From Kiritimatiellia bacterium (lineage in GTDB: Bacteria > Verrucomicrobiota > Kiritimatiellia > RFP12 > UBA1067), in assembly GCA_046482825.1 (NCBI GenBank), contig JAWOEI010000109.1, positions 1 to 61,535 of the forward strand: a DNA stretch of 61,535 bases, written 5' to 3'. Numbering within the stretch: the first letter of the stretch is position 1; each line of letters begins with the position of its first letter. The notes beneath the pieces were generated by a model that saw only the letters and a list, made by a program, of their open reading frames with translations, was not told the DNA's origin and did no database searches. The position numbers were made by a program, and so were the translations under genes. Below are positions 10,488-59,438 of the stretch, piece after piece.

Positions 10488-10644
10488 TTGCGGTTGAGTT
10501 GACGGAGCCCCTTAACCCTGGTTTCAGCGAACAATCTGCGGAATGCCGGTGGAATACTGGCTGGCAGCGCGGTTGTGACTTTTATACCGTGTTTTCGCGA
10601 AGAAAAAAACTTTAACCGCCTCCGGGTGGACGAGGAACCGGACT

Positions 10645-11079: not shown

Positions 11080-11097
11080 TAATATCAGGAGGCCTTT

Positions 11098-11502
11098 ATG
11101 GCTTACAGAAGAAAAAAAAACAGAGGTGAATCTCCCCAGCTGGATATGACGCCTATGATCGATGTGGTTTTCCAGTTGTTGATCTTTTTTGTTGTCACTA
11201 TCAAGCAGGAGGATATCCTCTCTAAGCTGTCCGCAGCACGCCCCGCTCCAGATAAGAATGCGAAGCCGGATAAGCAACCCGATCTGCTGAATATCATTGT
11301 TGCGTCGCAGGGCTTCATCTTTAACGGACGCTCGGTGAGTAAAGAGGCACTGGACAGACGTATCGAGCAGTATTCCAAGCTCAGCAAAACTGCGATGATA
11401 GTGATCAAGTGTACTGCTGATTCTCCACACGGGCTCCTGGTGCAGTCACTGGATATCTGCAATAAGCATGGTATGACGAACCTGTCCATTTTCAGTATGT
11501 AA
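11098..11502 (+). CDS. exbD: Biopolymer transport protein ExbD/TolR (copy 2)
   Basis: 134 aa. 'DMTPMIDVVFQLLIFFVVT'. AGGAGG lies 6 nt upstream. It starts 18 nt after copy 1. Confidence 0.9.
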   Translation: MAYRRKKNRGESPQLDMTPMIDVVFQLLIFFVVTIKQEDILSKLSAARPAPDKNAKPDKQPDLLNIIVASQGFIFNGRSVSKEALDRRIEQYSKLSKTAMIVIKCTADSPHGLLVQSLDICNKHGMTNLSIFSM

Positions 11503-33517: not shown

Positions 33518-33556
33518 TATTCACCTCACTTGTTTTTATTTTTTTTATGCTCTGCG

Positions 33557-33566
33557 GGGGGGGGGT
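33557..33566. repeat. G10 homopolymer (C10 on the def strand), adjacent to a T5-A-T8 run
   Basis: Read directly: 'tgtttttattttttttatgctctgc' followed by ten G, then 'tgc'. It lies 40 nt upstream of the def start and 276 nt upstream of the acyl-CoA ligase start. Confidence 0.95.
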
Positions 33567-33841
33567 GCATTTACAGCGTTCTGGTGTTACGTCTTCCCAG
33601 AAGTGTAGATAAATCGCAGGGGATTGGCAATCTCAAAAATCGGTTGGCACAGGCGCCGTCTTATCGTACAATGCAGAGCTGTCTGGCTGCGCAGTTATGC
33701 ACAGGCGGGCAGTTGAATAAAGACAGGCAGAGATGTATGAGAACTTTTTTTCTATGTCCTCCTGTTTTTACCCTTGCTGTTTCCGGAAAAACCAATGTGC
33801 GATCTGCCGGAAAATTTTGTTTTTCATGCGAAAGGAAGATT

Positions 33842-35521
33842 ATGACACTCAGAAATCTGCTGGAAAATGCCGTCGATAAACTTCCTGAACGGATTGCAAT
33901 CAGATATAAACAGGCAGGAGAATGGAAAAGTATAAGCTATGCCGTTTTATATGATAATGTTGCCCGGATGGCTGAAGCTTTCGCGGATCTCGGTATCAGA
34001 CCGGTTGACAACAACGTTGCTTTGATGCTGGATAACTGTCCTGAATGGATTGAAAGTTATTTCGCCCTGGCCGGATGCGGTGTGCCTGTTGTTCCTGTTG
34101 ACCCGCGACTGCAACCTGATGAAATAGCCTACATTCTGAAAGATTCGCAGTCTGTGATGCTGATTGCGCATGAACGTCATATTCCTGTAATCAGCGATAT
34201 GTATGAGGATCTCCCCGATCTCCATTCTGCGGTTATAGCTGGTGGAACCGGTGATGTCGGGGCGGACGATATCAGTCTGCCCCTTCACAGTTACAACCGT
34301 CTGAAATCAGAACTTGCCGGAAGAAGCGGATTGTCATGGTTTGCCGATCACAAACCGGAAAGCGGCCACGTGGCATCGATTATCTATACTTCCGGTACAA
34401 TGGGCAATCCCAAAGGAGCTATGCTGACGCACAATAACTTCTGCAGTGATGTAAGCGGTTCTCTTGCGGCAGTTGATAATGTTCTGAATGAAAAAGATGA
34501 CTTTCTGGTTGTGCTTCCTTTATTCCATTCATTTTCATTTACCGCAAATCTTTTAATAGCTGTGGCGAATGCAAGCGGACTCTGCTTTGTTGAAAACCTG
34601 CGCACATTAGCTCAGGATATCAAAGAGCTGAAGCCCACAATTCTGATGGGAGTTCCGCTTCTGTATGAAAAACTTTTTTATAAAATTCTCTCGCGTCTCC
34701 AGGCTCATGCCTTGCCGCGTTTTATGCTGAAAACAGGGATGGGACGGCTTCTGGGATTCCAGGTGCGCAAAGGTCTGGGAGGAAGACTGCGCTATATGAT
34801 TGTGGGCGGCGCCCCCTGTCCTGTGGATGTCATCAGAGGGTTCAAGCTTCTGGGTATTCCGCTGGTGGAGGGGTATGGCCTTACCGAGTGTTCCCCTGTT
34901 GTCTGTTTTCCCAGGCTCACGGAACCGCATATCGGGACTATCGGCAGAAAACTGCCCAATGCTGAAGTGCGTATTGCGGAACCGGATGAAACCGGAAGCG
35001 GTGAACTTCAGGTGCGGGGCCCTATGATCATGAAAGGATACTACAGAAATATAGAGGCCACCCGCGATGCTTTTGACGGGGAATGGTTGAAAACCGGTGA
35101 TATGGCCCGTATAGATGCAAATGGTTATATTTCAATATGCGGACGCAGAAAAGCTCTGATCGTCAACCGCGAAGGCAAGAATATTTATCCGGAAGAGGTG
35201 GAGAATGTCATCGGAGTGGATCCGCTGCTGAGTGATCTTGTAGTTGTGGGGTATCGCGTCGGATCCGATCCCGGAGAGCGTATAGGTGTGATAGTTGCTC
35301 CGGATGAAGATCTGCTGAAGCAGGAATTGGATGAGGATGCTGCTGATACCGCCCGCGTCGAGGATTTTGTTAGAAAAAGACTTATGAAACAGTGTGAAAA
35401 ACTGGCCGCGTATAAACGCCCCAGAAAAATCGTTGTCAGACGCGAGCCTCTGGAAAGAACCTCTGTACAGAAAGTGCGGCGCTGCCTTTATCAGGGCTGG
35501 CTTGATGATGAGAAAGAATAG
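33842..35521 (+). CDS. Long-chain-fatty-acid--CoA ligase (AMP-binding family)
   Basis: AMP motif 'IIYTSGTMGNPKGAMLTHNN', 'EGYGLTE', 'WLKTGDMARID'. I place the start at ATG 33842 (MTLRNLLENA) with 'aaggaag' upstream. The track's 104-aa N-terminal extension crosses the homopolymer region. Confidence 0.85.
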   Translation: MTLRNLLENAVDKLPERIAIRYKQAGEWKSISYAVLYDNVARMAEAFADLGIRPVDNNVALMLDNCPEWIESYFALAGCGVPVVPVDPRLQPDEIAYILKDSQSVMLIAHERHIPVISDMYEDLPDLHSAVIAGGTGDVGADDISLPLHSYNRLKSELAGRSGLSWFADHKPESGHVASIIYTSGTMGNPKGAMLTHNNFCSDVSGSLAAVDNVLNEKDDFLVVLPLFHSFSFTANLLIAVANASGLCFVENLRTLAQDIKELKPTILMGVPLLYEKLFYKILSRLQAHALPRFMLKTGMGRLLGFQVRKGLGGRLRYMIVGGAPCPVDVIRGFKLLGIPLVEGYGLTECSPVVCFPRLTEPHIGTIGRKLPNAEVRIAEPDETGSGELQVRGPMIMKGYYRNIEATRDAFDGEWLKTGDMARIDANGYISICGRRKALIVNREGKNIYPEEVENVIGVDPLLSDLVVVGYRVGSDPGERIGVIVAPDEDLLKQELDEDAADTARVEDFVRKRLMKQCEKLAAYKRPRKIVVRREPLERTSVQKVRRCLYQGWLDDEKE

Positions 35522-37396: not shown

Positions 37397-38899
37397 TTAG
37401 TGTTCGTGCTGATTATCCCGCGGGTTTTTCGGATTGAATCCGCCTGTGAAAGGTTCGGCTCCCGGTATAAACATATACAGGCAGGCGCGGCGGTCGCTTT
37501 CTCCCATGAAGAGGGTTCCGTCGATTCCCGTTGTTATGGCATCAAACTGGTATGCCCGCTTGGCGTAGTACGGACTGCGGTCAACGGTTATTCCTCCCCA
37601 GTCGTGAAAACCCTCTTTTCCGTCCAGACCGTAACTGAACAGCTTGCAGGGTTCTTCAAATTGACCGCAGATCATGTAGAGACGGTTGTCGTGGCCGAGC
37701 GACATCCCGCGGACACGCCGGGACAAGCGCGGTTTTCCGAGGTTGGTCAGCTGTTGACGTGACTTGTCCAGTCGGAAAAGGTAACCATCGGTAGTGGCGC
37801 CGTATAGTGACCCGTCAGGCGTCGCCTGCCACGCTTCCAGTACCGGATAGCCGTAATAGTTCCAGGCTTCGTAGTACTCTCCGGGAATCTGCATCCCTGT
37901 AGCGACAATTTTCTTTTTCTCCGTATCGTAGTAAACGATGCGCCCGTCTTCACCGGATGTATAAATGCGTGTTATCCGGCCGGTTTTTTTTGATTCTGCT
38001 CCTGAGGAATTCACTACGCCTTTATCAACAAACAACGCACGAGGAATGCTGCGCCACTGACGTTCAGGACCGGAATAGATCTTGCGTTTAAGCAGCGGCA
38101 GGCTTTCCGTCAGCTTGTTTTTTCGCAGATCCCATACAAAGAACAGGGCGTCAGGATAAGTAATGCCGTACAGCTGTCGCGCGGCTTTATCTATTGCCAT
38201 GGCGTATATAGTGTTGTTTTTGACCGGTATGCCGAGATCCTCCAGCGGGCAGGCTTCACCCGGCAGACGGGCGCCTTTGTTGCCGGAGACGGGATCATAG
38301 CGGTAAAGGTGTCCTCCTGTATAATCTGCGTACGGAGCGGCAATATCTTTCCACAGCTGTTTTTCAATCGCCCGGAAACCACCCGGAAAATCCCGGGTCA
38401 GTTTGACCGGAGCCAGCATGTTGAGTCCTCCGCCTATAAGCAGGGAACCATCGGCATCCTGCAGCAGAGCGTGATAGACACCTTTGTTTTCTTCGATATG
38501 ACCCAGCGGCCGTACTTTGTTGATGGCGCGGTCATAGAGAAAAAGATATGATGCGCTTTTGCCGCTGGTTGCTCCATACACCATGCCGTCCTCGGATGTC
38601 AGCAGCGCTGTGACAGGTGAATTGTCGGCCGGTACTGCATTTACATCGGGATATCCGAGATCACGGTAGTCCAGCCGGTGGCCGTCGAATTTAGGATTCA
38701 CCCATTTCTGAGCCAGAGATGTTCCGGTGACAAGAAGTACGGTTAGCAAAATGCCGACCTTGAAAATTGTCGTCCACCTGTAAATCGGTTGACCCCACCC
38801 GGCGCATGCGGCTGCAGGTTTTGATCCGACCTTCGATGTTCGGCATAATTGCATGGTTTTAGTGAAATCCAGGTTTGATTCATGAAATATTTTAATCAT
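37397..38899 (-). CDS. Uncharacterised beta-propeller-like exported protein (paralog 2)
   Basis: 500 aa. Hydrophobic anchor 'IFKVGILLTVLLVTGTSLA'. Recurring blade-like 'DG.(L/V)YG(A)T' segments ('EDGMVYGATSG', 'PDGSLYGATTDGYLFRLD', 'IDGTLFMGES'). The ATG overlaps the upstream stop (ATGA). Confidence 0.6.
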   Translation of the reverse strand: MIKIFHESNLDFTKTMQLCRTSKVGSKPAAACAGWGQPIYRWTTIFKVGILLTVLLVTGTSLAQKWVNPKFDGHRLDYRDLGYPDVNAVPADNSPVTALLTSEDGMVYGATSGKSASYLFLYDRAINKVRPLGHIEENKGVYHALLQDADGSLLIGGGLNMLAPVKLTRDFPGGFRAIEKQLWKDIAAPYADYTGGHLYRYDPVSGNKGARLPGEACPLEDLGIPVKNNTIYAMAIDKAARQLYGITYPDALFFVWDLRKNKLTESLPLLKRKIYSGPERQWRSIPRALFVDKGVVNSSGAESKKTGRITRIYTSGEDGRIVYYDTEKKKIVATGMQIPGEYYEAWNYYGYPVLEAWQATPDGSLYGATTDGYLFRLDKSRQQLTNLGKPRLSRRVRGMSLGHDNRLYMICGQFEEPCKLFSYGLDGKEGFHDWGGITVDRSPYYAKRAYQFDAITTGIDGTLFMGESDRRACLYMFIPGAEPFTGGFNPKNPRDNQHEH

Positions 38900-40248
38900 T
38901 TTATTGCTCCTTTTTTAGGTGTGTAGCGTACCAGACCCAGGCTGAACGGCCATTTGCCATCTATTCTGTTGGCAACCCGGTCGGGATTCTTTTCTTCAAC
39001 AGCGCCGACGAAATAGATGTTTCCGTCTTTCTGACCGGTGCAGGCACCGCCGAGCCCGAAGATGCGCTGTCCATCTACGCCACGCAGCAGACCGAGTTCT
39101 TCGCGCTGTTCTGTGTCGAGATCATATCTGATCAGAACCGATTCCGGCGGGGTGTCTTTGCCTGTGAGATGAGCGGTGAATCTGCGTTCATCAGCCACAT
39201 CCCAGGATGTGCCCGAGTAATCGAAGGCTACGGAAATTACAGGGGCGTAATAGAGTTTGCGCTGCGGAGTGATGGTCAGCGCCAGCGTGGCAACCGGTAT
39301 CAGACTCGCATCAGCTTCCATATAACGCTCGGCACAGAGCCGCGTCAGCGGGGTGACGGTTCCTTCCGGACCTTCATACGGATCAAAACGGAATAGGCGG
39401 GAATCACCTACCATTGTACCGTAAGCCACGCGTTCTCCAGGCTCCCATTCAATGACCCGCCAGTAAACTTTGCGGTCTATCATTGGATTGGACATCGTAC
39501 GCGGTGTCGAGCGTGGATCAAGCGGCAGGCGGGTTCCGCGCAGATCAAAGATCCTGTCGAGTTCCGGATCATATTTCCAGATGCGCCCGGTTGGAAAAGA
39601 GCCGTAAATGTTGCCTTCATCATCCGCGAAGATCGTGCGACAGATGTCCCAGTCGTCAACACGGCCGAGATCGGTTGTTGCCATGGTTTCCAGATCGAGA
39701 TAATAGAGGTGTCCGTCTTCCGCGAGACCGTAGGCCCGCTGGTATTTAGGTTCAAATACCATTCCAAGCAGCCCCCACTGTCTGTTGATACGTCCCAGGT
39801 TCTCCAGCTTTTCTTCGGCGGGATCATACCGGAACCAGTGCGGTCCACGATAACTGGCGGGATCTATGCATTCCGGGCCGGTATCTTCACAGAAATCCGC
39901 AAAATAGATACGTCCCTTTTTGTCTTCGCTCATGCGCACATGAATCTTGCCTGATGTTCTTATGCCCTTGCCTCGTTCCCCTTTGAAAACGGTTAAATCA
40001 GCGATATGATTCATTTTCGATTTTAGCGGATCATATTCAAAAAAATGAGCCGCCTCAGCGTGTGTGCAAAGCCCTATATAGAGTTTGCCGCTTTTAGCTG
40101 CGTATAAAGCGCTCCACATGCTGTCTTCAAGACCGCTACCGCCAGTGAAGCGGATTATATCAACAGGTACTGTCTTTTCCTGCTCTGCAAAAATGCTGCT
40201 GGCAACTGTAAGCAAGCCCAGCAACAGTATTCTGATGGATTTTAACAT
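38896..40248 (-). CDS. Uncharacterised beta-propeller-like secreted protein (paralog 1)
   Basis: ~450 aa from ATG 40248, with 'aaagga' upstream. Signal peptide 'MLKSIRILLLGLLTVASSIFA'. Blade-like repeats ('SGKLYIGLC', 'KGRIYFADF', 'DGHLYYLDL', 'EGNIYGSF', 'DGNIYFVGA'). Confidence 0.6.
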   Translation of the reverse strand: MLKSIRILLLGLLTVASSIFAEQEKTVPVDIIRFTGGSGLEDSMWSALYAAKSGKLYIGLCTHAEAAHFFEYDPLKSKMNHIADLTVFKGERGKGIRTSGKIHVRMSEDKKGRIYFADFCEDTGPECIDPASYRGPHWFRYDPAEEKLENLGRINRQWGLLGMVFEPKYQRAYGLAEDGHLYYLDLETMATTDLGRVDDWDICRTIFADDEGNIYGSFPTGRIWKYDPELDRIFDLRGTRLPLDPRSTPRTMSNPMIDRKVYWRVIEWEPGERVAYGTMVGDSRLFRFDPYEGPEGTVTPLTRLCAERYMEADASLIPVATLALTITPQRKLYYAPVISVAFDYSGTSWDVADERRFTAHLTGKDTPPESVLIRYDLDTEQREELGLLRGVDGQRIFGLGGACTGQKDGNIYFVGAVEEKNPDRVANRIDGKWPFSLGLVRYTPKKGAIK

Positions 40249-40543
40249 CTGTATTCCTTTCGTTTTGTTATTGTATCTCCTTACTGTCACTCCATAATAT
40301 ATCGTCCGGAGTAAACCCTCAATTCCGTATATGCGAAGTGGAATTATGTTTTTGCGAAGTTAAAGCTTGCTTTTCCTGAAAGGTCATTTATGATAACTAA
40401 AGATTATAACTTTATTGTTAAAAACAGAGGACACATTATTAACATGTTGATGCGTAAATTATCAGTGATTAACGACCGTACGCAGTACGGGAATAATTTC
40501 CACATCTATTCGCGGAGATCAGCAGGCTGAAAATCGTTTACTG

Positions 40544-41980: not shown

Positions 41981-42475
41981 TTACTTCTGGAAAATAAAGA
42001 ATTTGCGCATTGTGTAATTGATAAAAAGGGATGTGAATATATTTGCTCCGAAGGCGAGGGTTGTCTGCATATCGAATTCAACTATCAGCAGTGACTGCAG
42101 TACCGTGCCGATAATCATGCTGATGGCGGAGACTCCGAAAAAGAGCAGAAACTCCAGGACCCGGTGATGGCGTCCCGGTTTGAATACAAAAAGTACATTA
42201 AGTATGTAACAGAATATGTTGGAAATTATAAAGGCGATGGCGTTGCTGTAGGCCGCCCGGGTGGCACGGACCCCTTCAGCTATTTCCGGAGCCGTCAGCC
42301 CCAGCAGCCTGACAAATATGTCCGACTGGCCTATGCAAGGAAACAGAAACCAGCCACAGATAAAAAAGACAACCATGTGAACGACGGTTGACATACCGCC
42401 GACCAAGCCGTACTTGATGAACTGCACTATAGGATGTGCGTCATGGCTCAGGTTTTTTTTGATGAAATCCAACAT
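41981..42475 (-). CDS. GtrA-family membrane protein
   Basis: ~164 aa from ATG 42475 (MLDFIKK...). 'VQFIKYGLVGGMSTVVHMVVFF' is the GtrA N-terminal signature, and there are four TM segments. It starts 19 nt after the lipA stop. Confidence 0.7.
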   Translation of the reverse strand: MLDFIKKNLSHDAHPIVQFIKYGLVGGMSTVVHMVVFFICGWFLFPCIGQSDIFVRLLGLTAPEIAEGVRATRAAYSNAIAFIISNIFCYILNVLFVFKPGRHHRVLEFLLFFGVSAISMIIGTVLQSLLIVEFDMQTTLAFGANIFTSLFINYTMRKFFIFQK

Positions 42476-42494
42476 AATTGTTTCAATTCGCGTA

Positions 42495-43376
42495 CTATGA
42501 TTTTGTTCGCAATTTGTTACGGACAAACTCAGCCTGCCCCTCTTCATGATACGAACTGCGGATAAGCGGAGCACAGGCGGCAAATCGGAAACCTGTGTCA
42601 TAGGCCTTTTTTTCTATATCGGAAAATTCCTCCGGTGTAAAATAACCCGCAACCGGTAGATGACGCGGAGTGGGCTGCAGATACTGACCGGCGTAGAAGA
42701 TGCGGCATCCCGCATCATAGGCGTCCTGAACGGACGCATAAATTTCCTCCATGGTTTCGCCTAATCCTAGCATCAGGGAGGTCTTGGTGATATGCCCTTG
42801 ATCCGCAGCGTGTCTGAGAATATCAAGAGATCGCTGATAATCGGCCTGCGGACGCGCTTCCGGATATAGGCGCGGCACTGTTTCCAGATTATGGCTGAAA
42901 ATGTGCGGTTGTGTCGCCAGTACGAGATCCAGCTGATCCGTATTTCCCTGGAAATCCGGTGTGAGAATTTCGATAAGAACATCGGGATTCGTCTCTCTGA
43001 CGCGGCGGACTGTTTCGGCCCAGTGACCGGCACCGTTATCAGGCAGGTCATCACGGGTGACGGATGTCAGAACGGTTTCTTTCAGACCTGCTTCTTTAAC
43101 AGCTTCCGCAACAAGGCCGGGTTCTTCAGAATCCGGCGGAAGTAGTTCCCGGTGATCAACGTTACAGAAACGGCAGTTGCGCGAACAGCAGTCACCAAGT
43201 ATCATGATGGTGGCACGTCCGTGCCGCCAGCAATGTCCTAAATTGGGGCAGAATGCCTCTTCACAGACTGTATGCAGCCCTTTTTTCTTCAAGCGGGCAC
43301 GTGTGGCCTGAAAGGTCTCGTTGTTTCCTATCCTGACTCTTATCCACGGCGGTTTTCTGTCGGCACTGATCGGCAT
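42495..43376 (-). CDS. lipA: Lipoyl synthase
   Basis: 'CEEAFCPNLGHCW' auxiliary cluster and radical-SAM 'CSRNCRFC'. I place the start at ATG 43376 (MPISADRKPPWIR). The track's extension runs across a REP hairpin. Confidence 0.95.
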   Translation of the reverse strand: MPISADRKPPWIRVRIGNNETFQATRARLKKKGLHTVCEEAFCPNLGHCWRHGRATIMILGDCCSRNCRFCNVDHRELLPPDSEEPGLVAEAVKEAGLKETVLTSVTRDDLPDNGAGHWAETVRRVRETNPDVLIEILTPDFQGNTDQLDLVLATQPHIFSHNLETVPRLYPEARPQADYQRSLDILRHAADQGHITKTSLMLGLGETMEEIYASVQDAYDAGCRIFYAGQYLQPTPRHLPVAGYFTPEEFSDIEKKAYDTGFRFAACAPLIRSSYHEEGQAEFVRNKLRTKS

Positions 43377-49600: not shown

Positions 49601-49722
49601 CCAAGGATCTGGAAGCCGTCGTCCGTATAAAAGAGAAGTTTGCAAAACATCCTCCGAACAGACACGCCCGCTTTTTTGATTTTGACATCGATCAGCAGGG
49701 GTTGAAAGTGACTGTGCTTTAG
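46642..49722 (+). CDS. fkp: L-fucokinase, Fkp-like (fucokinase / possible fucose-1-phosphate guanylyltransferase fusion)
   Basis: 1026 aa. The N-terminal nucleotidyltransferase/fucokinase-type region includes 'YDIIVLTAANEAQAGGYRKQL' and 'HSGGDSRR'. The C-terminal GHMP kinase has 'LPKGSGMGTSSILGSAVLACL' and 'LPGAGGGGFIF'. Confidence 0.85.
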   Translation: MQNYDIIVLTAANEAQAGGYRKQLNWRRENGLIPENTRSLVVADPDGRRVGSLGSTFFVLYELAEYLFNIRKASSFEELFRGCRILICHSGGDSRRTPAYAAQGKVFTPVPAVAENGAPLALFDLILKTLAELPAPEDGHVLVTSGDVLLTFDHASVDFSRPGVTGVAYFGSCERGSRHGVYVPSRFKGTSSRTVCYPVADFLQKPDHDQMRTAGAIDAFGHVAIDTGLVSFGPETVQKLMVLCGVRLSKYKVTVVNGILNDIISGQAPQMDIYEELLMALTPSFSEAGFVENFAGRYPGTQHKRRMRRFYRAVHDVDLNVNILPYCEFFHIGSSRELLSGFSGLSRTAREYGFSNGSGSALMHPDDSERAFVFNSYLNVPFSSGRSLLEAVYLDGKSEIVLDGDNILTGIPAECNVNISLPAGIGLVCLPVGRKKWTALAYGIRDDFKTPFKDGNDCLFLNNPVNVWMKKNSVPSVELWRDNENNGMWTARLWRMGELDDVLAEAVKIASGKGFKSSSRAGRYSISEILPKVNHSRLLEVRRAIRRKVGLLNVRNRLKQNNSLPAQVICDDIRSREDAKCVLRQLADLIESATPGEYLFKARVLKTASMIYRLWPDAGCAVCSQVADSEAAVKAAFQQISHCVALNYQPPDFKGKAAILHDQVVWVTTPVRIDFAGGWSDTPPVCTERGGTVLNAAITLNGLYPVQVMAKLNERNTIRLSSIDLGERQELTKTAQILDHHDPRDWAALAKAALILSGIVPDSTQVSLKKKLEMFGGGLDLTIFSSLPKGSGMGTSSILGSAVLACLDRVLGLRFSADRLIFMTSMLEQRMSTGGGWQDQVGGIMPGVKLIRTEPGVAQTVNLRWSVFDLHRDSDLKKRCLLYFTGQKRMARNLLQNVVGGYLARDPLILKTLDELKICALDTKEALDAQDIEGFCRGVNRYWELKKQIDPGSTNEPIEKLLALVQDDCSARLLPGAGGGGFIFIIAKDLEAVVRIKEKFAKHPPNRHARFFDFDIDQQGLKVTVL

Positions 49723-50028
49723 AAAAAATAATACCTGTCCCTAATTTTCACTACTTTCCTTTTCCCGCGAATCTCCGCCAATCTCTGTTGCGGCAGAAAT
49801 TTTTTTAACGCTAATCGCTAAAAATTCCTGTCGCTAAGGCTTTTCCAGTAATCTCAAACGTATTAAATTTTAAGTGATTAACGGCCCCGCGCAGCGGGGA
49901 TAAAATTTAATGCGCCTTTCGCGAAGATTAGCGGGCCAAAAACCTGGAAACACATTAAAGCCTGTCACTATTTCTTCGGATCGGACGACTGCGCAGCTGT
50001 AGGCCGGGTCCCCGACCCGGCGCACCAA
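49723..50028 (+). repeat. Mosaic intergenic element, copy C (starts immediately after the fkp stop codon)
   Basis: Same architecture as copies A and B. Nested stems: cgctaatc (49809-49816) / gattagcg (49926-49933), attaaatttta (49862-49872) / taaaatttaat (49901-49911), and ccccgc-gca-gcgggg (49885-49899). The REP lies at 49994-50024. Confidence 0.9.
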
Positions 50029-50206
50029 CTGAAAACAAAACAAAGCCATGTAAAAACGCAGACAAATGTAATGAACATGTGTAGGATTGGTTGAGATCCG
50101 CCGCGGGCTTTGAAATGCGCAGACCCCGTCGGCGCTTATAGTTGAACTTTTGTAGAACAACAAAGCGGAAACCCGGCCTGCAGTTGCGGAGCTTGCCCGC
50201 AATAAG

Positions 50207-53200
50207 TTATAGGATCAGAATTACTGTACCGCTGTTATCGCGCAGAACCTCAAGCATCCCCTCGCCGGAAAAGTAAATGTCGTTTATGTTATTCGCTCCG
50301 CTTCCTGTGGCGCCGTAGGTGCCTTTTGACTTCTGTTCTCCATCCAGAAAAAGATATTTCACCTTTTCAGTCAGACCAGCGTTGATCTCGACATAACCTG
50401 ATTCATCGATATGAAGTTCGGCGTTGTCCGAAACAGCAGCATCGTTCTCGAGTACTATTGAACCGGTTCCGCTCACAACAACGTTGGTGCTGTTGTCTCC
50501 GAATGTTCCCAGGTTGGATGCCTTCAATGTTCCGTTGCTGACAATGAAACTGCCCGCTGTGGATGTGAAGGCATTGGTCAGTGTAAGCGTGCCCGTTCCC
50601 AGTTTCAAAACACTGAGTTCTCCATGGAACTGCCCGTTGAAGCTGGTGTTATCATCCTGGGCGATGGTCAGCAGGGCTGGCGTCGGACTGGTGATCCGAC
50701 GGGAGCCTGTTTTGTGCGTTAAGTCATCCAGTTTCCCGATTGTCTGGTCGTTGCCGTTTAGGTCAAGAATGCCGTATGGAGCGAAACTGACACCGACACG
50801 CAACGATGATGAGGGAGGCAGAACATCAGGATAACTGCAGCGCAGTGTGCCGCCTGCTACCATTGTGTCAGACCAGGTGTTGTTTGTAACAGCAAGAACG
50901 GTCAAACCTCCGGTATCTGTCCAGAAAGTGCACCCTGCAAGATTCAGTGGTTTGTCTGTGAATGTAATTGTTTGTCTTGCATTAATCACAAAATAATGAT
51001 TGGAAGTGACCGCTGTGATACCTCCGCTGAAAACAAGGTCTGCGTCAATTGCTTTTATTCTGACCTGATCTTCACAGGTGACCGGGCCGCTGATGGTGTT
51101 GATGCCGTCGCCTTTCGATATCAACGTTCCCGCATTGTTGAGCTCCCCGTGAAGGTAGAGGGGCTCTTCTATGTTCACGCCATTGGAAACGCTCAGTCGT
51201 GCTCCGCTATAACCGTTGATAACAGTGTGGCCGTTAGTGCTGCCAAAGGCATGTGAATCCGTAACATCAATATCTCCCCCGTTACCGGTGAATACGCCGT
51301 CAAAGGAATTGCTCGCTGTCAGTTTCAGGTCGCCCGTGCCTTCCTTAGTTATGTTGCAGGGAAGGAACCCGTCATCCAGTTTACCGTCAATAACTAACAG
51401 GGTGGAAGCAGATCCATTCTCAACATTCCATGTCTGACTCTCGTACAGGACCATGTCTTCCTCAATGGTGTAAGTGTGGGCGCTTGTGCTTGGAGTCTGT
51501 GCGCTGATGCCTCCGACACCGTTTGTGATTATTCCGTTCCCTGTGGCTAATGTGAAATTGTTGTCGCGGTTGAACGTGATTTTATAGAGATTCATGGTAG
51601 AGTCAATGGTTGCTGTGTCGCCGTCCGTCGCAAAAATCAGATTGGCGGCGCCGCTGTCTGTCGGAACAGCATCATCCACCCAGTTTTCGGGCGTGCTGAC
51701 AAATGTGTCGGATCCTTCCGCATCCCATGTGGTGTCGACAGGCGTGATAGGCGGATTGCTTTCCACAAAAAGCATTTCCGTGCCGGAGAAGAAGGTATCG
51801 TTAATAAACATTGCGCCGCTGCCGGTTGCACCGTAATAACCGCGTTCCTGCTGTATCCCGTTGATAAACAGCTTGTCAACAGTTTCTGTTGTGCCGCCGC
51901 CAAGTGTAATTTCTCCGCCGTTACCTATATAAAGGGCTGTTGTATCAGTAATGGCATCAGGTGTTGAAAGATTCAGAGAACCGTCAACAACTGTTATGCC
52001 TGAACTGCTGTCAAGGGCAGCTCCCGAAGTCACATTCAGAGACGCGTTGCTGACGGAAATATCGCCGCTGTCAAGAACTGCTCCTGATGCGACAGCCAGT
52101 GTGCCGTTATTTACAGCAATATCACCGGTTGTCGAGCTTTGCCGTTCGGTTAGAGTCAATGTGCCGCTTCCGAGTTTGATCAGGGAGATTGCTTCGCTCA
52201 GTTTGCCGTCAAATACAGTGTTGCCGGATTGGTTCACTGTCAGGGTTGCCGCGTCTGATGATGTCAGGGTGTTGACGAGAACTGTACCTTCTTCACCCGT
52301 TAGACTGGCAATTGTCTGATGGTTTCCGTTCAGGGCAAGGATGCCGCCCTTTTCTGAAAACAAGACGTTAACATCTGCATCAAGCGCAACTGAAGTGCCG
52401 AGTTTTATTACGCCGTAATTAATGGTCAGATTACCGGTGAAGGTGTTTTCCCCGCCCAGAGTCCATGTGCCTGCGTCAAGTTTAATAATAGCATCTGATG
52501 CCCCTTCGGAAATCACGCCGTTGATTGTACCTGTTCCGCCGCCTCGCAGATAAAGGGTGTATGTGTTCAGATCGATGTTGCCGTTGAGGGTGACATTATC
52601 ATTGTAGTCTGTCGGTTTGCCCACAAAAACCGGGGAGTTTTTTATCAGCACGATTTTGTTGGTATGTGTGGTGGTACTCAGAAACATCAAGCCGCCCGGA
52701 TGGTCGAGAGAAGAGGAAATACTTCCTCCATCCAGTGTTAACGTGCCTGTTCCCATAGCTCCGGATTTGGGGACATAGATTCTTCTCCAGTCTCCGTTAG
52801 AGGCTTGGACGGTGAGTCCGCCTGCAAAAGTGTTGTACGCGTGGTTAAGATAGAGTCCGCCGAAGTTGTCTGTTTTGACAATGCCGCCGTCCCCGGAAAT
52901 CAGGCCGTCCATGTAGAGGTTATAGGTGTCCACTTTCAAAGTGAATGTAATGCCCGCAGGAATATGTATATCGTTGCCCAGATGACAGGTTGCTTGGCGT
53001 GAAAAGTAGATGCGCGGCTGGGTTGTACCGTTGACAGCTACCTGTATCTGTTGGCCGTCAAGAGTGAAAGCAGTGTGAGGATCAGCCGCATAGTGGCGGT
53101 ATATGAGCTGGTTCAGGATAAATGGATCCGCTATATCCTGCACCGGTGTAAGCCGTGTGGCACCGGCCAGTTCTATGGTTGTATCCGAGGCGCTTACCGG

Positions 53201-53338
53201 AGCGCCGCTGGGATTCCAGTTGTCGGCTGTGCTCCAGTTGTCATCAGTTCCGCCGCCATCCCAGATGTAGGAGTCGGCTGTGGCAGTTGATGTAAGCAGA
53301 GAAACAATACACAATAATAACACACGATTTGTTTTCAT
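50207..53338 (-). CDS. Large secreted beta-helical adhesin-like protein (autotransporter-associated beta-strand repeats)
   Basis: 1043 aa. Signal peptide, 'YIWDGGGTDDNWSTADNWNP', and repeated 'GSGTLTLT/GTGTLTLTN' and 'LNGNxQTI' units. I see no C-terminal barrel or PEP-CTERM motif. Confidence 0.85.
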   Translation of the reverse strand: MKTNRVLLLCIVSLLTSTATADSYIWDGGGTDDNWSTADNWNPSGAPVSASDTTIELAGATRLTPVQDIADPFILNQLIYRHYAADPHTAFTLDGQQIQVAVNGTTQPRIYFSRQATCHLGNDIHIPAGITFTLKVDTYNLYMDGLISGDGGIVKTDNFGGLYLNHAYNTFAGGLTVQASNGDWRRIYVPKSGAMGTGTLTLDGGSISSSLDHPGGLMFLSTTTHTNKIVLIKNSPVFVGKPTDYNDNVTLNGNIDLNTYTLYLRGGGTGTINGVISEGASDAIIKLDAGTWTLGGENTFTGNLTINYGVIKLGTSVALDADVNVLFSEKGGILALNGNHQTIASLTGEEGTVLVNTLTSSDAATLTVNQSGNTVFDGKLSEAISLIKLGSGTLTLTERQSSTTGDIAVNNGTLAVASGAVLDSGDISVSNASLNVTSGAALDSSSGITVVDGSLNLSTPDAITDTTALYIGNGGEITLGGGTTETVDKLFINGIQQERGYYGATGSGAMFINDTFFSGTEMLFVESNPPITPVDTTWDAEGSDTFVSTPENWVDDAVPTDSGAANLIFATDGDTATIDSTMNLYKITFNRDNNFTLATGNGIITNGVGGISAQTPSTSAHTYTIEEDMVLYESQTWNVENGSASTLLVIDGKLDDGFLPCNITKEGTGDLKLTASNSFDGVFTGNGGDIDVTDSHAFGSTNGHTVINGYSGARLSVSNGVNIEEPLYLHGELNNAGTLISKGDGINTISGPVTCEDQVRIKAIDADLVFSGGITAVTSNHYFVINARQTITFTDKPLNLAGCTFWTDTGGLTVLAVTNNTWSDTMVAGGTLRCSYPDVLPPSSSLRVGVSFAPYGILDLNGNDQTIGKLDDLTHKTGSRRITSPTPALLTIAQDDNTSFNGQFHGELSVLKLGTGTLTLTNAFTSTAGSFIVSNGTLKASNLGTFGDNSTNVVVSGTGSIVLENDAAVSDNAELHIDESGYVEINAGLTEKVKYLFLDGEQKSKGTYGATGSGANNINDIYFSGEGMLEVLRDNSGTVILIL

Positions 53339-53435
53339 AACACTTATTCCCGTTTATTTATTGAATAATTAGCATCCCAATAAGGATGTTGGAACTTAAT
53401 TAAATTCCACCTTTCAATCTATTATGGGGGGGGGG

Positions 53436-53445
53436 ACGTGAAAAT
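53436..53445. repeat. G10 homopolymer (C10 on the coding strand), 98-107 nt upstream of the adhesin ATG
   Basis: Read directly: 'ctattatg' followed by ten G, then 'acgtg'. It lies inside the 234-nt gap between the 137-aa gene and the adhesin gene. Confidence 0.95.
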
Positions 53446-53572
53446 GTCAAGCCTGCGATTTTTCGATAAAGACGTGCTATGATAAGGCAACCCTGAATTT
53501 ATGCAGCCCGATAGTCTGCATCCTGCTTGTCAGGTTGTATCCGAGGCGAAGACTAATGTGATGCTGATCTAT

Positions 53573-53986
53573 TTAAAAATGCTTTCTTACATTCAGAATA
53601 CAGCATACAATAAACAGAAGAAAAACACCTATGAAACGATACTTGCGGAAAGTTTTTGATTCAGTCTGTTTCTTCTTCTTATTACCGGCCTTCTTGTTTA
53701 TGGAAGCGGATGTCAGTTTATTAAGGTCTTCGTCGGTTTTATCGCTGTTGATCCAGAGCGGGATATTCTCCGGTGAAATGGTTCTGATCTTTTCAGCCCG
53801 TATCCGGGCCGCCTTCAGGCGGGCAGCTTTTTTTTCCAGTAATGACTGGGCATTCCTTCGACGCTGCTCCACGTTCAATTCGCTTGGTCCGGTTATCCCT
53901 GATTCAACAGAATCATCAACAATTGCCTGTGCCGTACTAAACAGTATAAAAAATTCGATAACGACTAAAATTTGCTGTTTTTTCAT
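53573..53986 (-). CDS. Small bitopic protein (signal peptide + coiled segment + C-terminal TM), unknown function
   Basis: 137 aa. N-terminal 'ILVVIEFFILFSTAQA', a K/R-rich middle, and C-terminal TM 'FIGVFLLFIVCCIL'. The ATG directly abuts the stop of the 580-aa gene. Confidence 0.5.
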   Translation of the reverse strand: MKKQQILVVIEFFILFSTAQAIVDDSVESGITGPSELNVEQRRRNAQSLLEKKAARLKAARIRAEKIRTISPENIPLWINSDKTDEDLNKLTSASINKKAGNKKKKQTESKTFRKYRFIGVFLLFIVCCILNVRKHF

Positions 53987-55729
53987 TTAACTTGCTTCTC
54001 TCCAGCCTATAACACGCGGTGTGCCTATGGTTAACGGCATAAAAATAAAGGTGTTCATGCCGTCCGGGCTTTTTGAGCCAAGGCGTATATCCCAGTTTAT
54101 TCTCACTGATTTTGTGTAAATGCAGCCGTCATCGCGGCAAACAAATCCGCCGTTAAACTTGCATGCCCCGACCATACCCATAAGAGCATGATTATTGAAA
54201 AGGACGGCATCTATGTTTGACAGGTAGCCGCTTTGGCTTAATTCCGAGATTTTGTGATTCCCTACTGTGCTTTCATAATATCTGCGGTCCTCAGTGCCTG
54301 AAGGAACATATTCCTTTTTTTCCCAATCCCATCTGTAATTTATTTTTTCTCCGCCATCTCTAGCTGTGTAATCACCATTGAAATAATCCCCGTACCCAAT
54401 GGAAGCATCTGTCGGATCGCATTCGTAGCCATTGACAAAAGGAGGCTTGATGTTTCTTCCGACAGAAGACAGCCAATTATGAGATGTGTAATCGCCCAGA
54501 ACAACATTGCCTTTGGCTATTAATCCGAGCATGTCCTTTGATTGATTCTTTTTTGTTGTTTTGTCCGGGGAATTGTCAGGCTTGGGCCATACAGGTGGAT
54601 TTGCGTAATTGACGTCTCCGACAATATGGATGTTTCTTCCCGCATATATAGTGCCCTGTCCTGTAACTGTTCCTTTTATGATAACATCACCGTTGACGAC
54701 TACGGGGCCGTCAATAATTATAGGTTTTTCTGTGCCGTCCAGGATAATACTTCCCGTATCATCCGCATTCTCTATTCCTGAAGGTCCGGGGCCGTCATAA
54801 CAACCATTAACCAGCGTTCTCCCCTGTTGTTTAATTGTTCCGTTGAGAATTCCGGCGATATTGCGATACCCCTCCAGATCCCCGAGGAAGGGCATTTCCA
54901 AATGTTCCTGATAGGAATACAAACCGTTGCGTGCTTCGTATCCCATCGAATACGGCTCTGTGGATGAACTGGATGTCGGGCTGGTTGGACGTGCGGCTCT
55001 TTCGTTATCATGCCAATATTCTGTCTGTTGCATATGACGGGTAGTGTTCCCTCCGTCAACAGTAATTTTTCCGGCAGCACCGATGGCGGGATTAGCTGCA
55101 GCATAGGCGAATCCGTTAATAATGGCGCTCCGGTCCAGTGTCATGTTTCCGTTTGCACGAATGTCCCCGTTTGCTGAACAGCCGTTCCCCATAAAATAAC
55201 CATAGTTGTTGACAAAATAAGCATAATCAAAAACCCGTGAGCGTTTCATTGCATACTGAACAGTTTCTTCTATGGTTCTCGAACATGTCATGCCCCCGGG
55301 TGATGTGGCAGTGCCCGTTGATTGAAAAGTGATGTCAGTAAATTGACGTGCCTCAGAGGCGGGGGATCTCTGAACGTCTGTAATAATCACAGAGACATTA
55401 CAATCGTCGATAACTGTGTCCTGCATTAAATCATAGCTGTATGCACCGGAACCGATGCTTGTAGAACTATAGCTGTCGAACCATGACAAAAGCTGCCAGG
55501 ATGATGGATTTATTTGATTGTATTTTTTAAATTCATCCAATATTTCGATTTTGGTCTGCTCCAGCCCTGACTGTGCACTCAGGCGGCACTTAGAAGCAGT
55601 AAGATATTGTCCCGCCGCTCGTGTGGCATATATGCTGTAGGAAAAAACGGCACCTGAAATTATTGCCACAACAGCGGTTGTCACAAGTACCAGTGGTAAT
55701 ACGAATCCGGTTTCTGAATGGTTTCTCAT
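53987..55729 (-). CDS. GspK/PilX-like large minor pseudopilin
   Basis: 580 aa. The N-terminus 'ETGFVLPLVLVTTAVVAIISGAVF' is a pilin-like hydrophobic helix without Glu+5. The large C-terminal part includes beta-helix-like 'VVNGDVIIKGTVTGQGTIYAGRNIHIVGDVNY'. Confidence 0.6.
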   Translation of the reverse strand: MRNHSETGFVLPLVLVTTAVVAIISGAVFSYSIYATRAAGQYLTASKCRLSAQSGLEQTKIEILDEFKKYNQINPSSWQLLSWFDSYSSTSIGSGAYSYDLMQDTVIDDCNVSVIITDVQRSPASEARQFTDITFQSTGTATSPGGMTCSRTIEETVQYAMKRSRVFDYAYFVNNYGYFMGNGCSANGDIRANGNMTLDRSAIINGFAYAAANPAIGAAGKITVDGGNTTRHMQQTEYWHDNERAARPTSPTSSSSTEPYSMGYEARNGLYSYQEHLEMPFLGDLEGYRNIAGILNGTIKQQGRTLVNGCYDGPGPSGIENADDTGSIILDGTEKPIIIDGPVVVNGDVIIKGTVTGQGTIYAGRNIHIVGDVNYANPPVWPKPDNSPDKTTKKNQSKDMLGLIAKGNVVLGDYTSHNWLSSVGRNIKPPFVNGYECDPTDASIGYGDYFNGDYTARDGGEKINYRWDWEKKEYVPSGTEDRRYYESTVGNHKISELSQSGYLSNIDAVLFNNHALMGMVGACKFNGGFVCRDDGCIYTKSVRINWDIRLGSKSPDGMNTFIFMPLTIGTPRVIGWREAS

Positions 55730-55737
55730 AGCATCTC

Positions 55738-56295
55738 CTACCTGTTGATGATTTGTGATCTGATCTGGTGCTGCTGGTTGTAACGCCTATCCCCTACCGG
55801 CATGGTCAGATCCAGATTAACGCGGATAGATTGATTGGAAGTATTGTGGGAAAACACATCTTCAGTCTGAAATTCAATGGTCCCCGGTGAAAGCCAGCGC
55901 TGACCGTTTCCTATCTCCGCCTTCAGCTTTTTGTTACGGCCCAGTGAGATAACGTTTTTCCGCCCCTTGCGAGGTTTGAACTGAATCCCTTTTCCCCATC
56001 GCCCGGAACCGCCGCCTGTTTCCTTTATAATTAATTCGGTTTGATCCGCATTCATCAGCCCCCCGTCTGAATTCACGCGGAATAGCAGTTTTTCCCGCAT
56101 TTCCCGCGATTTCAGAGATAGATGCGTTTCTGCAAAAGTTGCCTCCAGCAAACGTTGTGCCGAGACAATTGTAATGCATATCTGTCCAAAAATAATGACT
56201 GTGATGGAGCTTGCGATAAGGGTTTCAATAAGAGTAAATCCGCTGTTGCCACTCCGTTTTGATCCGGATTGATTCATATTTGTTTTGATTTGCAT
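55738..56295 (-). CDS. Prepilin-type N-terminal cleavage/methylation domain protein (pseudopilin)
   Basis: 'GNSGFTLIETLIASSITVIIFG' is a class-III signal (G|FTLIE). The first ATG is at 56295. The track's GTG at 56322 would overlap the upstream gene by 20 nt. Confidence 0.8.
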   Translation of the reverse strand: MQIKTNMNQSGSKRSGNSGFTLIETLIASSITVIIFGQICITIVSAQRLLEATFAETHLSLKSREMREKLLFRVNSDGGLMNADQTELIIKETGGGSGRWGKGIQFKPRKGRKNVISLGRNKKLKAEIGNGQRWLSPGTIEFQTEDVFSHNTSNQSIRVNLDLTMPVGDRRYNQQHQIRSQIINR

Positions 56296-56302
56296 AATCT
56301 TG

Positions 56303-56758
56303 TCAGAAGATCCTCCTGTCACTTTGGTATCTGATTATTGTATGATCAGTAGTTAATGCTTTATAATTGCCGTTTCCGACAGGCCATGCCACATTGGTCC
56401 TTATAACCCATCTGTTAGCCGGCATGCCTAAAGGGGTAATTGAACGAAGAAGATATGCCTGCTGTCCTCCATGCCAGACAGACGTCATCTGACTGTCGAC
56501 AACGGACCAGTCTGACTGTGCAGCAGGTACTGATGTTTCAAACCACTCTGTGTGCCTGTTAAAAATTTCCCATGCCTCATCAAAAGCAATTTCATCGGCA
56601 GCCAGCTGCCATTTTATAGAGTTGCATATGTTCCGGCAGGTGGCAATTGATTCGAACAGAGTCAGTATAAGCAGAAGTGCCAAAGAAGAGGCAAACATAA
56701 GTTCTATCAGGGTAAAACCGCTGTTGCGGTCCGATTTTGATTGTGTGTATGTACTCAT
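56303..56758 (-). CDS. Prepilin-type N-terminal cleavage/methylation domain protein (pseudopilin)
   Basis: 151 aa. 'SDRNSGFTLIELMFASSLALLLILTLF'. It is the first gene of the cassette. Confidence 0.8.
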   Translation of the reverse strand: MSTYTQSKSDRNSGFTLIELMFASSLALLLILTLFESIATCRNICNSIKWQLAADEIAFDEAWEIFNRHTEWFETSVPAAQSDWSVVDSQMTSVWHGGQQAYLLRSITPLGMPANRWVIRTNVAWPVGNGNYKALTTDHTIIRYQSDRRIF

Positions 56759-57538
56759 TTTTTCCCTGTAGTGTTCTCCCTAATAACAGTCCGAGTCCAG
56801 TAAAACTTCCAGTCTTAACACCAAATCCGGTCTGAAAAGCTACTTAATTATTAGCTTATTATTATAAGCTCTATATGGCACAGCAATACAGAATATGTCG
56901 GAGCAATTTAGATGCTATACTATAGAATTTATTTTATACCTAATTTGTTAAACTTAGTAATCAGCAGTTTGTCTTTATGAAAAGGGATATGCGCTGTTTG
57001 CTTCTGAGTATTATTGAGTATAAGATTATAGTTAATCGGATTAAATTTAAAATAAAGGTGTTTATGATATTGTCAATTATGCGAAAAATTTGAATTATGC
57101 GAAAATATAATCGCCACTGAAGGAAGAAATATTTTGTTCCAGTAAAAGGCGCGAGTAAATGTTAGCGAAAAGTGAAGTGATTTTGCTATAGTCGGAACAG
57201 AACGATTTCAGAGGGGAACATCAATTCAGCTGATAAATGAACAGGGTCTTAAGATAATATAAGACTCATATCTCGTAACGAAGGACGGCATGAAATGTTT
57301 GACGCCGTCTTCGCGTGAAATCGCAGTATTGTAGATAGCCCCCGTTCGGAAACCTTTTAGAACGCCTCGAAATACGGAATTTGTGCGCCGAATCCTTGAC
57401 GAAGGAACATGCTGAATACGTGATGCCCCTCCTTCGCCGTTTAGTTATGGCAGACAAGCAGATCAGACAGACTGAAAACAGGTGTTGGCGGGTGACGTTA
57501 ATCAGGAATTGTCAAATGCGAAGAACAGGAAACAAAAT

Positions 57539-59230: not shown

Positions 59231-59438
59231 GCAGCTGTAGGCCGGGTCCCCGACCCGGCGCACCAACGCAACTGTAGGCCGGGTGCCCCACCCGGCGCAC
59301 TACGCAGCTGTAGGCCGGGTCCCCCACCCGGCGCACTACCCGGCGCACCAACGCAGCTGTAGGCCGGGTGCCCGACCCGGCGCACCAACGCAACTGTAGG
59401 CCGGGTGCCCCACCCGGCGCACTACCCGGCGCACCAAC
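59231..59438 (+). repeat. Tandem array of five GTAG-headed REP units (36-49 nt each)
   Basis: The units start at 59231, 59268, 59304, 59353 and 59390. Each is 'gca(g/a)ctgtaggccgggt(c/g)ccc(g/c)acccggcgcac...'. Confidence 0.9.

Follow-up and report, generated by a model that had tools for sequence, protein, structure and literature searches.

We analysed a stretch of 61,535 nucleotides from a Kiritimatiellia bacterium (GenBank assembly GCA_046482825.1, contig JAWOEI010000109.1, positions 1 to 61,535), hereafter the window, with a focus on a cassette of four tightly packed genes that resemble the minor pilins of type IV pili and type II secretion systems (T2SSs), and on the large gene that follows them. 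All five genes lie on the minus strand, and inspection of the open reading frames (ORFs) confirmed the arrangement given in the original prediction, in which four packed genes are followed, after a 234-nt gap, by a large one. In 5′ to 3′ order on that strand, they encode minor pilin 1 (‘pilA-like’, 151 aa; 56303..56758), minor pilin 2 (‘pilB-like’, 194 aa when counted from a GTG; 55738..56322), a 580-aa protein described below as a putative capping minor pilin with an inserted beta-solenoid (53987..55729), a 137-aa small partner protein directly behind it (53573..53986), and a 1043-aa protein with PATR repeats (PF12951; 50207..53338), which we treat as a neighbour outside the pilin module. The source gene call starts pilin 2 at an ATG at position 56295 (185 aa), and we consider this start more likely than the GTG; with it, pilins 1 and 2 are separated by a 7-nt gap, whereas with the GTG they overlap by 20 nt. 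The following gaps are 8 nt between pilin 2 and the 580-aa gene, 0 nt between the 580-aa and 137-aa genes, and 234 nt between the latter and the PATR gene. Upstream of the cassette, an AT-rich spacer of 723 nt (37% GC; 56759..57481) separates it from a divergent gene with a metallo-beta-lactamase (MBL) fold. A Pfam scan of 39 other ORFs of at least 150 aa in the window identified no secretin, T2SSE, T2SSF or prepilin peptidase gene, in agreement with the original prediction, and no further ORF with a class III signal was found in the window besides those of the cassette.

Judged by their sequence features, the two small proteins are bona fide prepilins. As had been predicted, both carry the motif SGFTLIE; each has the elements of a class III signal, namely a short basic leader ending in Gly (MSTYTQSKSDRNSG/FTLIE in pilin 1 and NSG/FTLIE in pilin 2, with the slash marking the cleavage site), an FTLIE sequence with Glu at position +5, and a hydrophobic helix. 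Both surpass, narrowly, the curated cut-offs of PF07963 (N_methyl; 23.3 and 21.5 bits for pilins 1 and 2, cut-off 21.2) and TIGR02532 (17.5 and 17.3 bits, cut-off 16.3), and N_methyl is matched by 20/20 and 18/20 members of the respective families. An AlphaFold2 model of pilin 2, built with 14 database homologs, had a predicted local distance difference test score (pLDDT) of 79.6 and comprised a long N-terminal helix (residues 22-71) followed by an antiparallel sheet. This alpha-beta ‘lollipop’ order is also predicted for residues 10-163 of the 580-aa protein. For the heads of the small pilins, Pfam returned N_methyl only, and the NCBIfam matches to ComGD/E/F and HpsC were sub-threshold (E=0.027-0.11 for HpsC). 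Profile searches of PDB sequences with both families gave matches confined to the N-terminal helix. An attempt to assign pilin 2 to either the GspI/J or the PilV/W type failed, as Foldseek found no significant match to its model in the PDB. Since the heads match nothing specific, a GspI/J- or PilV/W-like role is suggested for the small pilins by gene position.

The 580-aa protein begins MRNHSETG/FVLPL and has Leu at +5, consistent with the predicted lack of Glu5 in its N-terminal helix. Gly8, which precedes the hydrophobic helix, is at least 90% conserved in the family, and the N-terminus G/F-x-L-P is kept. An alignment of 34 family members had a mean column identity of 42% and 66 invariant columns; R191, D348, K406, H514 and R549 are among the invariant residues. 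A word-indexed search returned 796 or more matches, all labelled ‘hypothetical’ and mostly from Kiritimatiellae, and an exhaustive profile search of 1.84 billion cluster representatives recovered 1208 clusters (50% identity) at E<=1e-3 and 366 at E<=1e-30. No entry identical to the exact 580-aa sequence is on record, and Pfam holds no model for the family; sub-threshold Pfam matches among the 34 members were to the solenoid families MinC_C (13), Bactofilin (9) and FapA (5). PilX_N (PF14341) did not match the window protein at E<=1 and matched 2 of the 34 members weakly (E>=0.06). The GspK model NF037980 reached 11.5 bits against a cut-off of 130, over the N-terminal 63 residues only (E=0.15).

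The AlphaFold2 model of the 580-aa protein (pLDDT 90.5, predicted template modelling score 0.84) comprises a 64-residue helix (10-73), a four-stranded pilin sheet (~105-163), a beta-solenoid of ~380 residues (~170-550) and terminal strands (566-579). When the model was compared with the PDB using Foldseek, the sole significant match was ComZ (6qvi_B; E=4.9e-7, probability 1.0). The best match of the solenoid in the PDB was the ice-binding protein 7bwy (TMt 0.55), and a fold search of the viral database BFVD gave only weak matches to DUF3494 (ice-binding-like) and baseplate proteins. A profile search of PDB sequences with the 580-aa family at E<=10 did not find ComZ and gave one non-significant match, to an antifreeze protein. 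In ComZ of Thermus thermophilus (PDB 6QVI), the pilin domain is GspK-like and is interrupted, between its penultimate and its last strand, by a triangular beta-solenoid of ~380 residues that resembles ice-binding proteins; the bulk of ComZ has been taken to restrict it to the tip, and binding to both DNA and the adjacent pilin PilA2 was shown (PMC6561018). All cyanobacterial PilX homologs are reported in a 2026 preprint to share this architecture, and their solenoid was proposed there to replace PilY1 as the tip plug (bioRxiv 10.64898/2026.02.12.705559). The 580-aa model contains the elements of this architecture, i.e. helix, sheet, solenoid and terminal strands, with the insertion point read from the order of the elements. 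On the basis of this predicted architecture, the fold match to ComZ and the descriptions in these two papers, the most fitting description of the 580-aa protein is that of a capping pilin of the ComZ/PilX type whose head is a built-in solenoid. According to the model, the beta-helical, ‘adhesin-like’ element of the tip is thus the ComZ-type solenoid within this pilin.

The likeness to ComZ extends to protein size (~550 aa), the hydrophobic N-terminal helix, the pilin sheet, the inserted solenoid and the adjoining small minor pilins. The two differ in that ComZ binds DNA and serves natural transformation, whereas the 580-aa family is known from sequence and model alone; in the host phyla, which are here Kiritimatiellota and Omnitrophota; and in the conserved small membrane partner, which has no described counterpart in the ComZ system (PMC6561018). 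With cyanobacterial PilX, including the HpsA-related PilX-EPS, the protein shares the character of a Glu5-less cap, the predicted interruption of the pilin fold by a solenoid (in PilX a triangular, ice-binding-like one ahead of the last strand), and the company of small minor pilins, which in cyanobacteria are of the PilV/PilW type; the weak HpsC matches of the window pilins are a further likeness. So is the variable size of the solenoid, as larger relatives of 950-1822 aa have the same N-terminus and an expanded solenoid. It differs from cyanobacterial PilX in having no NCBIfam HpsA or PilX match, in lineage, and in the extra small partner gene.

The 137-aa protein was correctly predicted to be a membrane protein. 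Its N-terminus resembles a signal peptide, the motif AEKIR-x-(I/L)-(S/P)-P-E marks a charged region, and a basic tail follows the C-terminal membrane helix; no Pfam or NCBIfam model matches the protein. A short same-strand ORF lies behind the 580-aa-family gene in 80 of 83 loci, in most of them with the same layout as the 137-aa protein. In a jackhmmer search with the 137-aa protein, 50 of the 51 matches were the ORF immediately downstream of the large gene, and the remaining one lay 270 nt downstream. Because it always follows the large subunit, the 137-aa protein is a putative family-specific accessory factor for it. Two irregularities were observed among its relatives. In the nearest relative of the window (L003, 11744-12166), the ortholog is split into an 87-aa ORF and a C-terminal membrane helix in another frame, which represents either an assembly frameshift or a pseudogene. 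In three Omnitrophota loci (L074, L075, L085), the ORF continues in frame into prepilin sequence (...KGFTVVELL / KGTTLLELMF), which suggests that the small protein is fused to a further pilin or that a stop between the two was missed.

Conservation of the cassette was assessed in one genome per species. The family was present in at least 222 genomes; the best 80 loci were examined with flanks of up to 10 kb on each side, and five more loci were added from contig look-ups (individual loci are labelled L001, L003 and so on). The relatives are mostly Kiritimatiellia and Omnitrophota, with some metagenome-assembled genomes (MAGs) labelled Planctomycetia, Lentisphaerae or Verrucomicrobia. Based on phmmer matches and ORF order, 68 of 75 loci have one or more prepilin ORFs upstream of the large gene, and 49 of them have two or more; homologs of pilin 1 were found upstream in 54 loci and homologs of pilin 2 in 55. 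With prepilins upstream and the small ORF downstream, the four-gene unit is conserved across Kiritimatiellota and Omnitrophota. No papers on pili in either phylum were found in the limited literature searched.

In these relatives, the module is often accompanied by genes of a pilus machine. PilB/GspE-like and PilC/GspF-like genes both occur within 10 kb in 19 of the 43 loci that have at least 9 kb of upstream sequence. In a rumen/gut clade, these two genes lie on the opposite strand, while the cassette strand carries, in order, a protein with an MshEN domain, two pilins, the large gene and the small gene. In the distant locus L042, the pilins and the large and small genes are followed by PilM, a PilN-sized protein, PilO, a small protein and a secretin. 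On the complete Omnitrophota chromosome of L062, the module is preceded by PilT, MshEN, two PilB genes, PilC and pilins with interspersed PilM, and is followed by a PilN-sized protein, PilO, a small protein and a secretin. In L007 (58% identity, 6.1-Mb chromosome), PilT lies 3.5 kb upstream; PilT scores above the NCBIfam cut-off in both L062 (464 versus 319) and L007. The type IVa machine genes, i.e. PilB, PilC, PilT, PilM/O and secretin, thus accompany the module in L042 and L062 and in part in L007, and the position of the module beside or inside such operons suggests that it was displaced from a type IVa-like pilus system and is not an accessory island. In the clade of the window itself, the module is usually dispersed: in L001 it lies between DUF1846 and NUDIX genes, and in L009 it follows an HU/zinc-ribbon protein. 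The ‘stand-alone’ state of the window cassette is therefore the usual one for its clade and no sign of an island.

Two further proteins recur near the module in relatives and are absent from the window. MshEN is the cyclic di-GMP-binding N-terminal domain of MshE/PilB-type ATPases. As a stand-alone protein of ~290 aa, it precedes the two pilins in the rumen clade (e.g. L004 8123-9007), a shorter version of ~155-200 aa lies between PilT and PilB in Omnitrophota (L062 1086-1550), and MshEN was seen in 24 other loci. A 317-aa protein with an HU-type DNA-binding domain and zinc ribbons adjoins the cassette in two different clades (L009 5434-6387; L004 12653-13606): in one case it precedes the cassette on the same strand, and in the other it lies behind it on the opposite strand.

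The 723-nt spacer upstream of pilin 1 presumably holds the promoter region of the cassette. It contains a degenerate sigma-54-type site, TAGCAT-N5-TTGCT (56902..56917, minus strand), ~145 nt upstream of the pilin 1 ATG, which aligns with a canonical TGGCAT-N5-TTGC in L003. In relatives, the pattern TGGCAY-N5-YTGCW shows an 11-fold enrichment at operon starts, with occurrences in 18 loci. A sigma-70-like site, TTGACA-16-TATTTT, was also found in the spacer (57076..57049, minus strand). In L003, the position of the spacer is taken by peptidase M24 and DUF1097 genes.

The original prediction had described the cassette as more AT-rich than the housekeeping genes and hence possibly of accessory origin. 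The direction of this difference was correct, since the cassette has a GC content of 44.9% and the other window genes a mean of 50.3 +/- 2.0%, and no other gene in the window has a GC content as low as that of any of the four cassette genes (z -1.9 to -4.5). Its size was overstated, as bamA has a GC content of 50.6% rather than the ~55% estimated by hand. The deficit of ~5 points is modest and common to codon positions 1+2, and in relatives the cassette GC tracks that of the host from 42% to 66%; recent horizontal acquisition was therefore rejected as an explanation. An accessory origin fits poorly with a module that occurs in at least 222 species genomes of two phyla and follows the GC of each host.

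Taken together, we consider it probable that the four-gene cassette is the minor-pilin (priming/tip) module of a type IVa-pilus-like machine whose core genes lie elsewhere in the genome. The combination of two prepilins with a large, Glu5-less capping subunit agrees with the pilus or pseudopilus tip module proposed in the original prediction. Following the paradigms of GspIJK, PilVWX and ComZ-PilA2, a prepilin peptidase would process the pilins, and the two small pilins and the 580-aa pilin would come together in the inner membrane by way of their N-terminal helices. The subunit without Glu5 would take the distal position and nucleate polymerisation of the major pilin, so that it would end at the filament tip, where its solenoid may act as a cap or plug and as a receptor. 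By analogy, the ligand of the solenoid might be DNA, as for ComZ, or polysaccharide, as proposed for cyanobacterial PilX-EPS. The 137-aa membrane protein may assist or hold the bulky 580-aa subunit.

The cassette resembles the GspK-GspI-GspJ and FimU-PilV-PilW-PilX sets in that low-abundance prepilins, presumed to act in priming and capping, are co-encoded with one large Glu5-less subunit. It differs from GspK in that the GspK model remains far below its cut-off, and in that the insert of GspK is alpha-helical whereas the insert here is predicted to be all-beta. It differs from FimU-PilVWX and GspHIJK in the lack of a PilX_N match and of a fourth, GspH/FimU-like pilin. Nor is it of the PilY1/PilC type, as was already noted in the original prediction: the cassette encodes no large non-pilin protein with a C-terminal beta-propeller, and the one large protein encoded beside it contains PATR repeats only, in an adjacency that is not conserved.

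Several observations weigh against assigning the cassette to a pilus tip. Pilus and secretion core genes are absent within the 61.5-kb window. The cap is accompanied by two prepilins here and by three in the classical sets, and the heads of the small pilins match no GspH/I/J, PilV/W or FimU model or structure. The likeness to ComZ is at the level of the fold only, with 9% identity, no profile match, a global TM-score of 0.29-0.33 and a root-mean-square deviation of 16 Å over the whole chain; domain orientation or details therefore differ, and the likeness could be due to convergence. That the C-terminal strands rejoin the pilin sheet is predicted from the order of the elements, and the whole 580-aa family is known from sequences and predicted models. 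In the sigma-54-like site of the window, the GG of the -24 element reads AG, and no canonical site occurs anywhere in the window, which leaves the function of the site uncertain here. Finally, no convincing terminator lies between the 137-aa gene and the promoter-like site of the PATR gene described below, so that some read-through from the cassette into that gene may occur.

An alternative is that the module belongs to a T2SS, in which a short periplasmic pseudopilus pushes exoproteins (e.g. glycan-degrading enzymes) through a secretin and no surface pilus is formed. The cap fold of the ComZ type is closest to GspK (PMC6561018), and the weak GspK match at the N-terminus of the 580-aa protein points the same way. 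In the rumen clade, GspF is the better-scoring model for the platform protein (347 bits versus 317 for PilC), PilT and PilMNO were not seen within 10 kb of the module, and elsewhere the secretins of L042 and L062 have a GspD-like N0 domain. The ATPases of the relatives, however, score higher as PilB (600-652 bits) than as GspE (555-614 bits) with the NCBIfam models, PilT exceeds its cut-off in L062 and L007, and PilM (PF11104, E=1.6e-52) and PilO lie directly behind the module in L042 and L062, while GspC, GspL and GspM were not found. A rigid solenoid of ~400 residues would also be more plausible as a displayed tip than as the head of a piston. We therefore regard a dedicated T2SS as an unlikely home for the module, and a type IVa-like pilus as the better assignment.

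The original prediction had further proposed that the five genes form one unit, in which the pseudopilus tip specifically presents or exports the large beta-helical protein. This 1043-aa protein has a Sec signal, four PATR repeats (PF12951, E=2.3e-10; TIGR02601) and no other Pfam or NCBIfam domain. It consists of two duplicated halves of ~510 aa (internal duplication E=1e-29) and ends in a short conserved hydrophobic tag (...GEGMLEVLRDNSGTVILIL). Neither an autotransporter beta-barrel nor a PEP-CTERM signal was found with Pfam, with NCBIfam or at the C-terminus. It resembles the PATR proteins of the Planctomycetes-Verrucomicrobia-Chlamydiae bacteria in its repeats and Sec signal, and its homologs are named ‘autotransporter-associated beta strand repeat-containing protein’; it differs from type V autotransporters in the lack of a translocator barrel and of PEP-CTERM, and in its hydrophobic tag, two-module duplication and tandem-array family. 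Its route across the outer membrane is thus unexplained, and a T2SS-like route is conceivable, which would suit the proposed link. The PATR gene also lies on the same strand as the cassette, 234 nt away, with no strong terminator behind the 137-aa gene. The adjacency recurs in L003 (ortholog with 62% identity, same arrangement), and in L026 an ortholog with 34% identity lies ~2.4 kb from the cassette.

Comparison across relatives argues against this link. Using a profile of the three orthologs, a PATR-type ORF was found close to the cassette in only 3 of 83 loci (the window, L003 and L026; 51 of the 83 have at least 5 kb of downstream sequence), and in L026 it is on the opposite strand. In Kiritimatiellae, PATR paralogs of ~1030 aa form tandem arrays without pilin genes, with at least seven paralogs in L087, at least four in L088 and at least four on the contig of P0149. 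In the MAG GCA_023269675.1, the cassette lies on one contig (L021) and the closest PATR homolog in an array on another (L088). In L086, the left-flank genes of L003 (GDSL lipase, methyltransferase, BirA, MBL, peptidase M24, DUF1097) are followed directly by a PATR gene, with no cassette; two ORFs at the edge of this locus were considered as the large and small genes of a cassette and ruled out by BLAST. The PATR gene of the window has a GC content of 50.1%, which is ordinary for the window, and in both GC and GC at third codon positions (GC3) it resembles its neighbours and not the cassette. The tip pilin, moreover, already bears a beta-solenoid head of its own.

The 234-nt gap contains a promoter-like site, TTGACA-18-CATAAT (53421..53450, minus strand), which has the best sigma-70-like score (11/12) in the region 49700-57500 and a C10 tract (53426-53435) in its spacer. 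In L026, the site of the ortholog reads TTGACT-18-CATAAT and includes a C7 tract in the corresponding position, and in L003 it reads TTGCAT-18-TATAAT without a tract. From this conserved site, the PATR gene very probably has its own promoter. The original prediction had named two observations that would speak against the link, namely independent transcription of the large gene and its occurrence without the cassette in relatives. The latter was seen in L086 and in the arrays of L087 and, on another contig than the cassette, L088; the former is supported by the conserved promoter-like site, tempered by the possible read-through. The 3/83 adjacency, the tandem arrays, L086 and the separate promoter-like site together essentially refute the link, and we consider a unit of all five genes very unlikely. 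The PATR protein is better seen as an independent Sec-exported surface or secreted beta-helix protein of a multi-copy family, adjacent to the cassette in this lineage only.

Slipped-strand phase variation is known for Bordetella fim promoters, and the C10 tract in the promoter spacer of a multi-copy surface-protein family provides a lead for such variation here. A second tract, of ten G residues (33556-33565), lies 26 nt inside the 5′ end of the longest ORF of an AMP-binding enzyme gene (33530-35521, TTG start); depending on where translation really begins, it is part of the coding sequence or immediately precedes it.

It is scarcely credible that the cassette, once separated from its machine, is now decaying as an orphan without function in this genome: although it has no core genes within 61.5 kb, a degenerate -24 element in its sigma-54-like site, a GC content below that of its neighbours and, in L003, a small gene that looks frameshifted, all four ORFs are intact and tightly spaced, the 580-aa protein is 67% identical to its L003 counterpart and has all 66 invariant residues (as the way the alignment was built entails), many relatives with an equally dispersed arrangement retain intact modules, and dispersed pilus genes are normal in bacteria.

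The remainder of the window is ordinary chromosome, with genes for RuvB, HisF/H, BamA, Skp, LpxD, DegP, RecJ, Def, BirA and a fucokinase/pyrophosphorylase. An Rfam scan of the whole window gave no match, and a repeat search of 49700-57500 revealed none bearing on the cassette. Three minus-strand ORFs of 500, 464 and 272 aa (37397-38899, 38896-40290 and 10612-11430) were without a Pfam match at E<=1e-3; with an overlap of 4 nt, the first two are arranged like an operon downstream of a sialate-O-acetylesterase-like gene. A tRNA-Val(GAC) gene (42248-42333, minus strand) lies inside the N-terminal part of the longest GtrA-like ORF (41981-42601), which indicates that the true start of the latter is further downstream. 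The window also contains 11 copies, versus 0.24 expected by chance, of an intergenic palindromic element that resembles repetitive extragenic palindromic (REP) sequences, CTGTAGGCCGGGTC(CCCGACCCGGC). Copies are located at 308, 4352, 45050, 45557, 49997 and 50170 (the last on the minus strand), including one inverted pair between the PATR and fucokinase genes, and a tandem cluster of five copies occupies 59235-59407 (59.2-59.4 kb). Spurious ‘RRVGDPAYSC’ ORFs are due to this element.

The solenoid of the probable pilus-tip module is unusually conserved for a tip adhesin, with 66 invariant columns across two phyla, many of which are Asp, Asn, Arg, Lys or His. Such conservation would be compatible with a solenoid that is more than a plug, namely a conserved receptor, or even a head with catalytic activity, displayed on the pilus. 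Such a head might be a DNA receptor, or a binder or cleaver of (sulfated) polysaccharides, with the adjoining small membrane protein as a dedicated assembly factor; we put this forward tentatively, as a possibility well short of an even chance. A DNA-receptor tip, if true, would point to natural competence in Kiritimatiellota and Omnitrophota, and a polysaccharide-binding tip would fit glycan specialists. The conserved small membrane protein is identified as a new partner candidate and, if it is an assembly factor, would be a previously undescribed one. The large beta-helical neighbour represents a lineage-specific juxtaposition and not a part of the system. With these results, a large ‘hypothetical’ family (1208 clusters at 50% identity, no Pfam model) can be named and assigned a role open to testing, and a solenoid-headed capping pilin without PilY1, the solution of ComZ and cyanobacterial PilX, is suggested to extend to the PVC-related phyla Kiritimatiellota and Omnitrophota.

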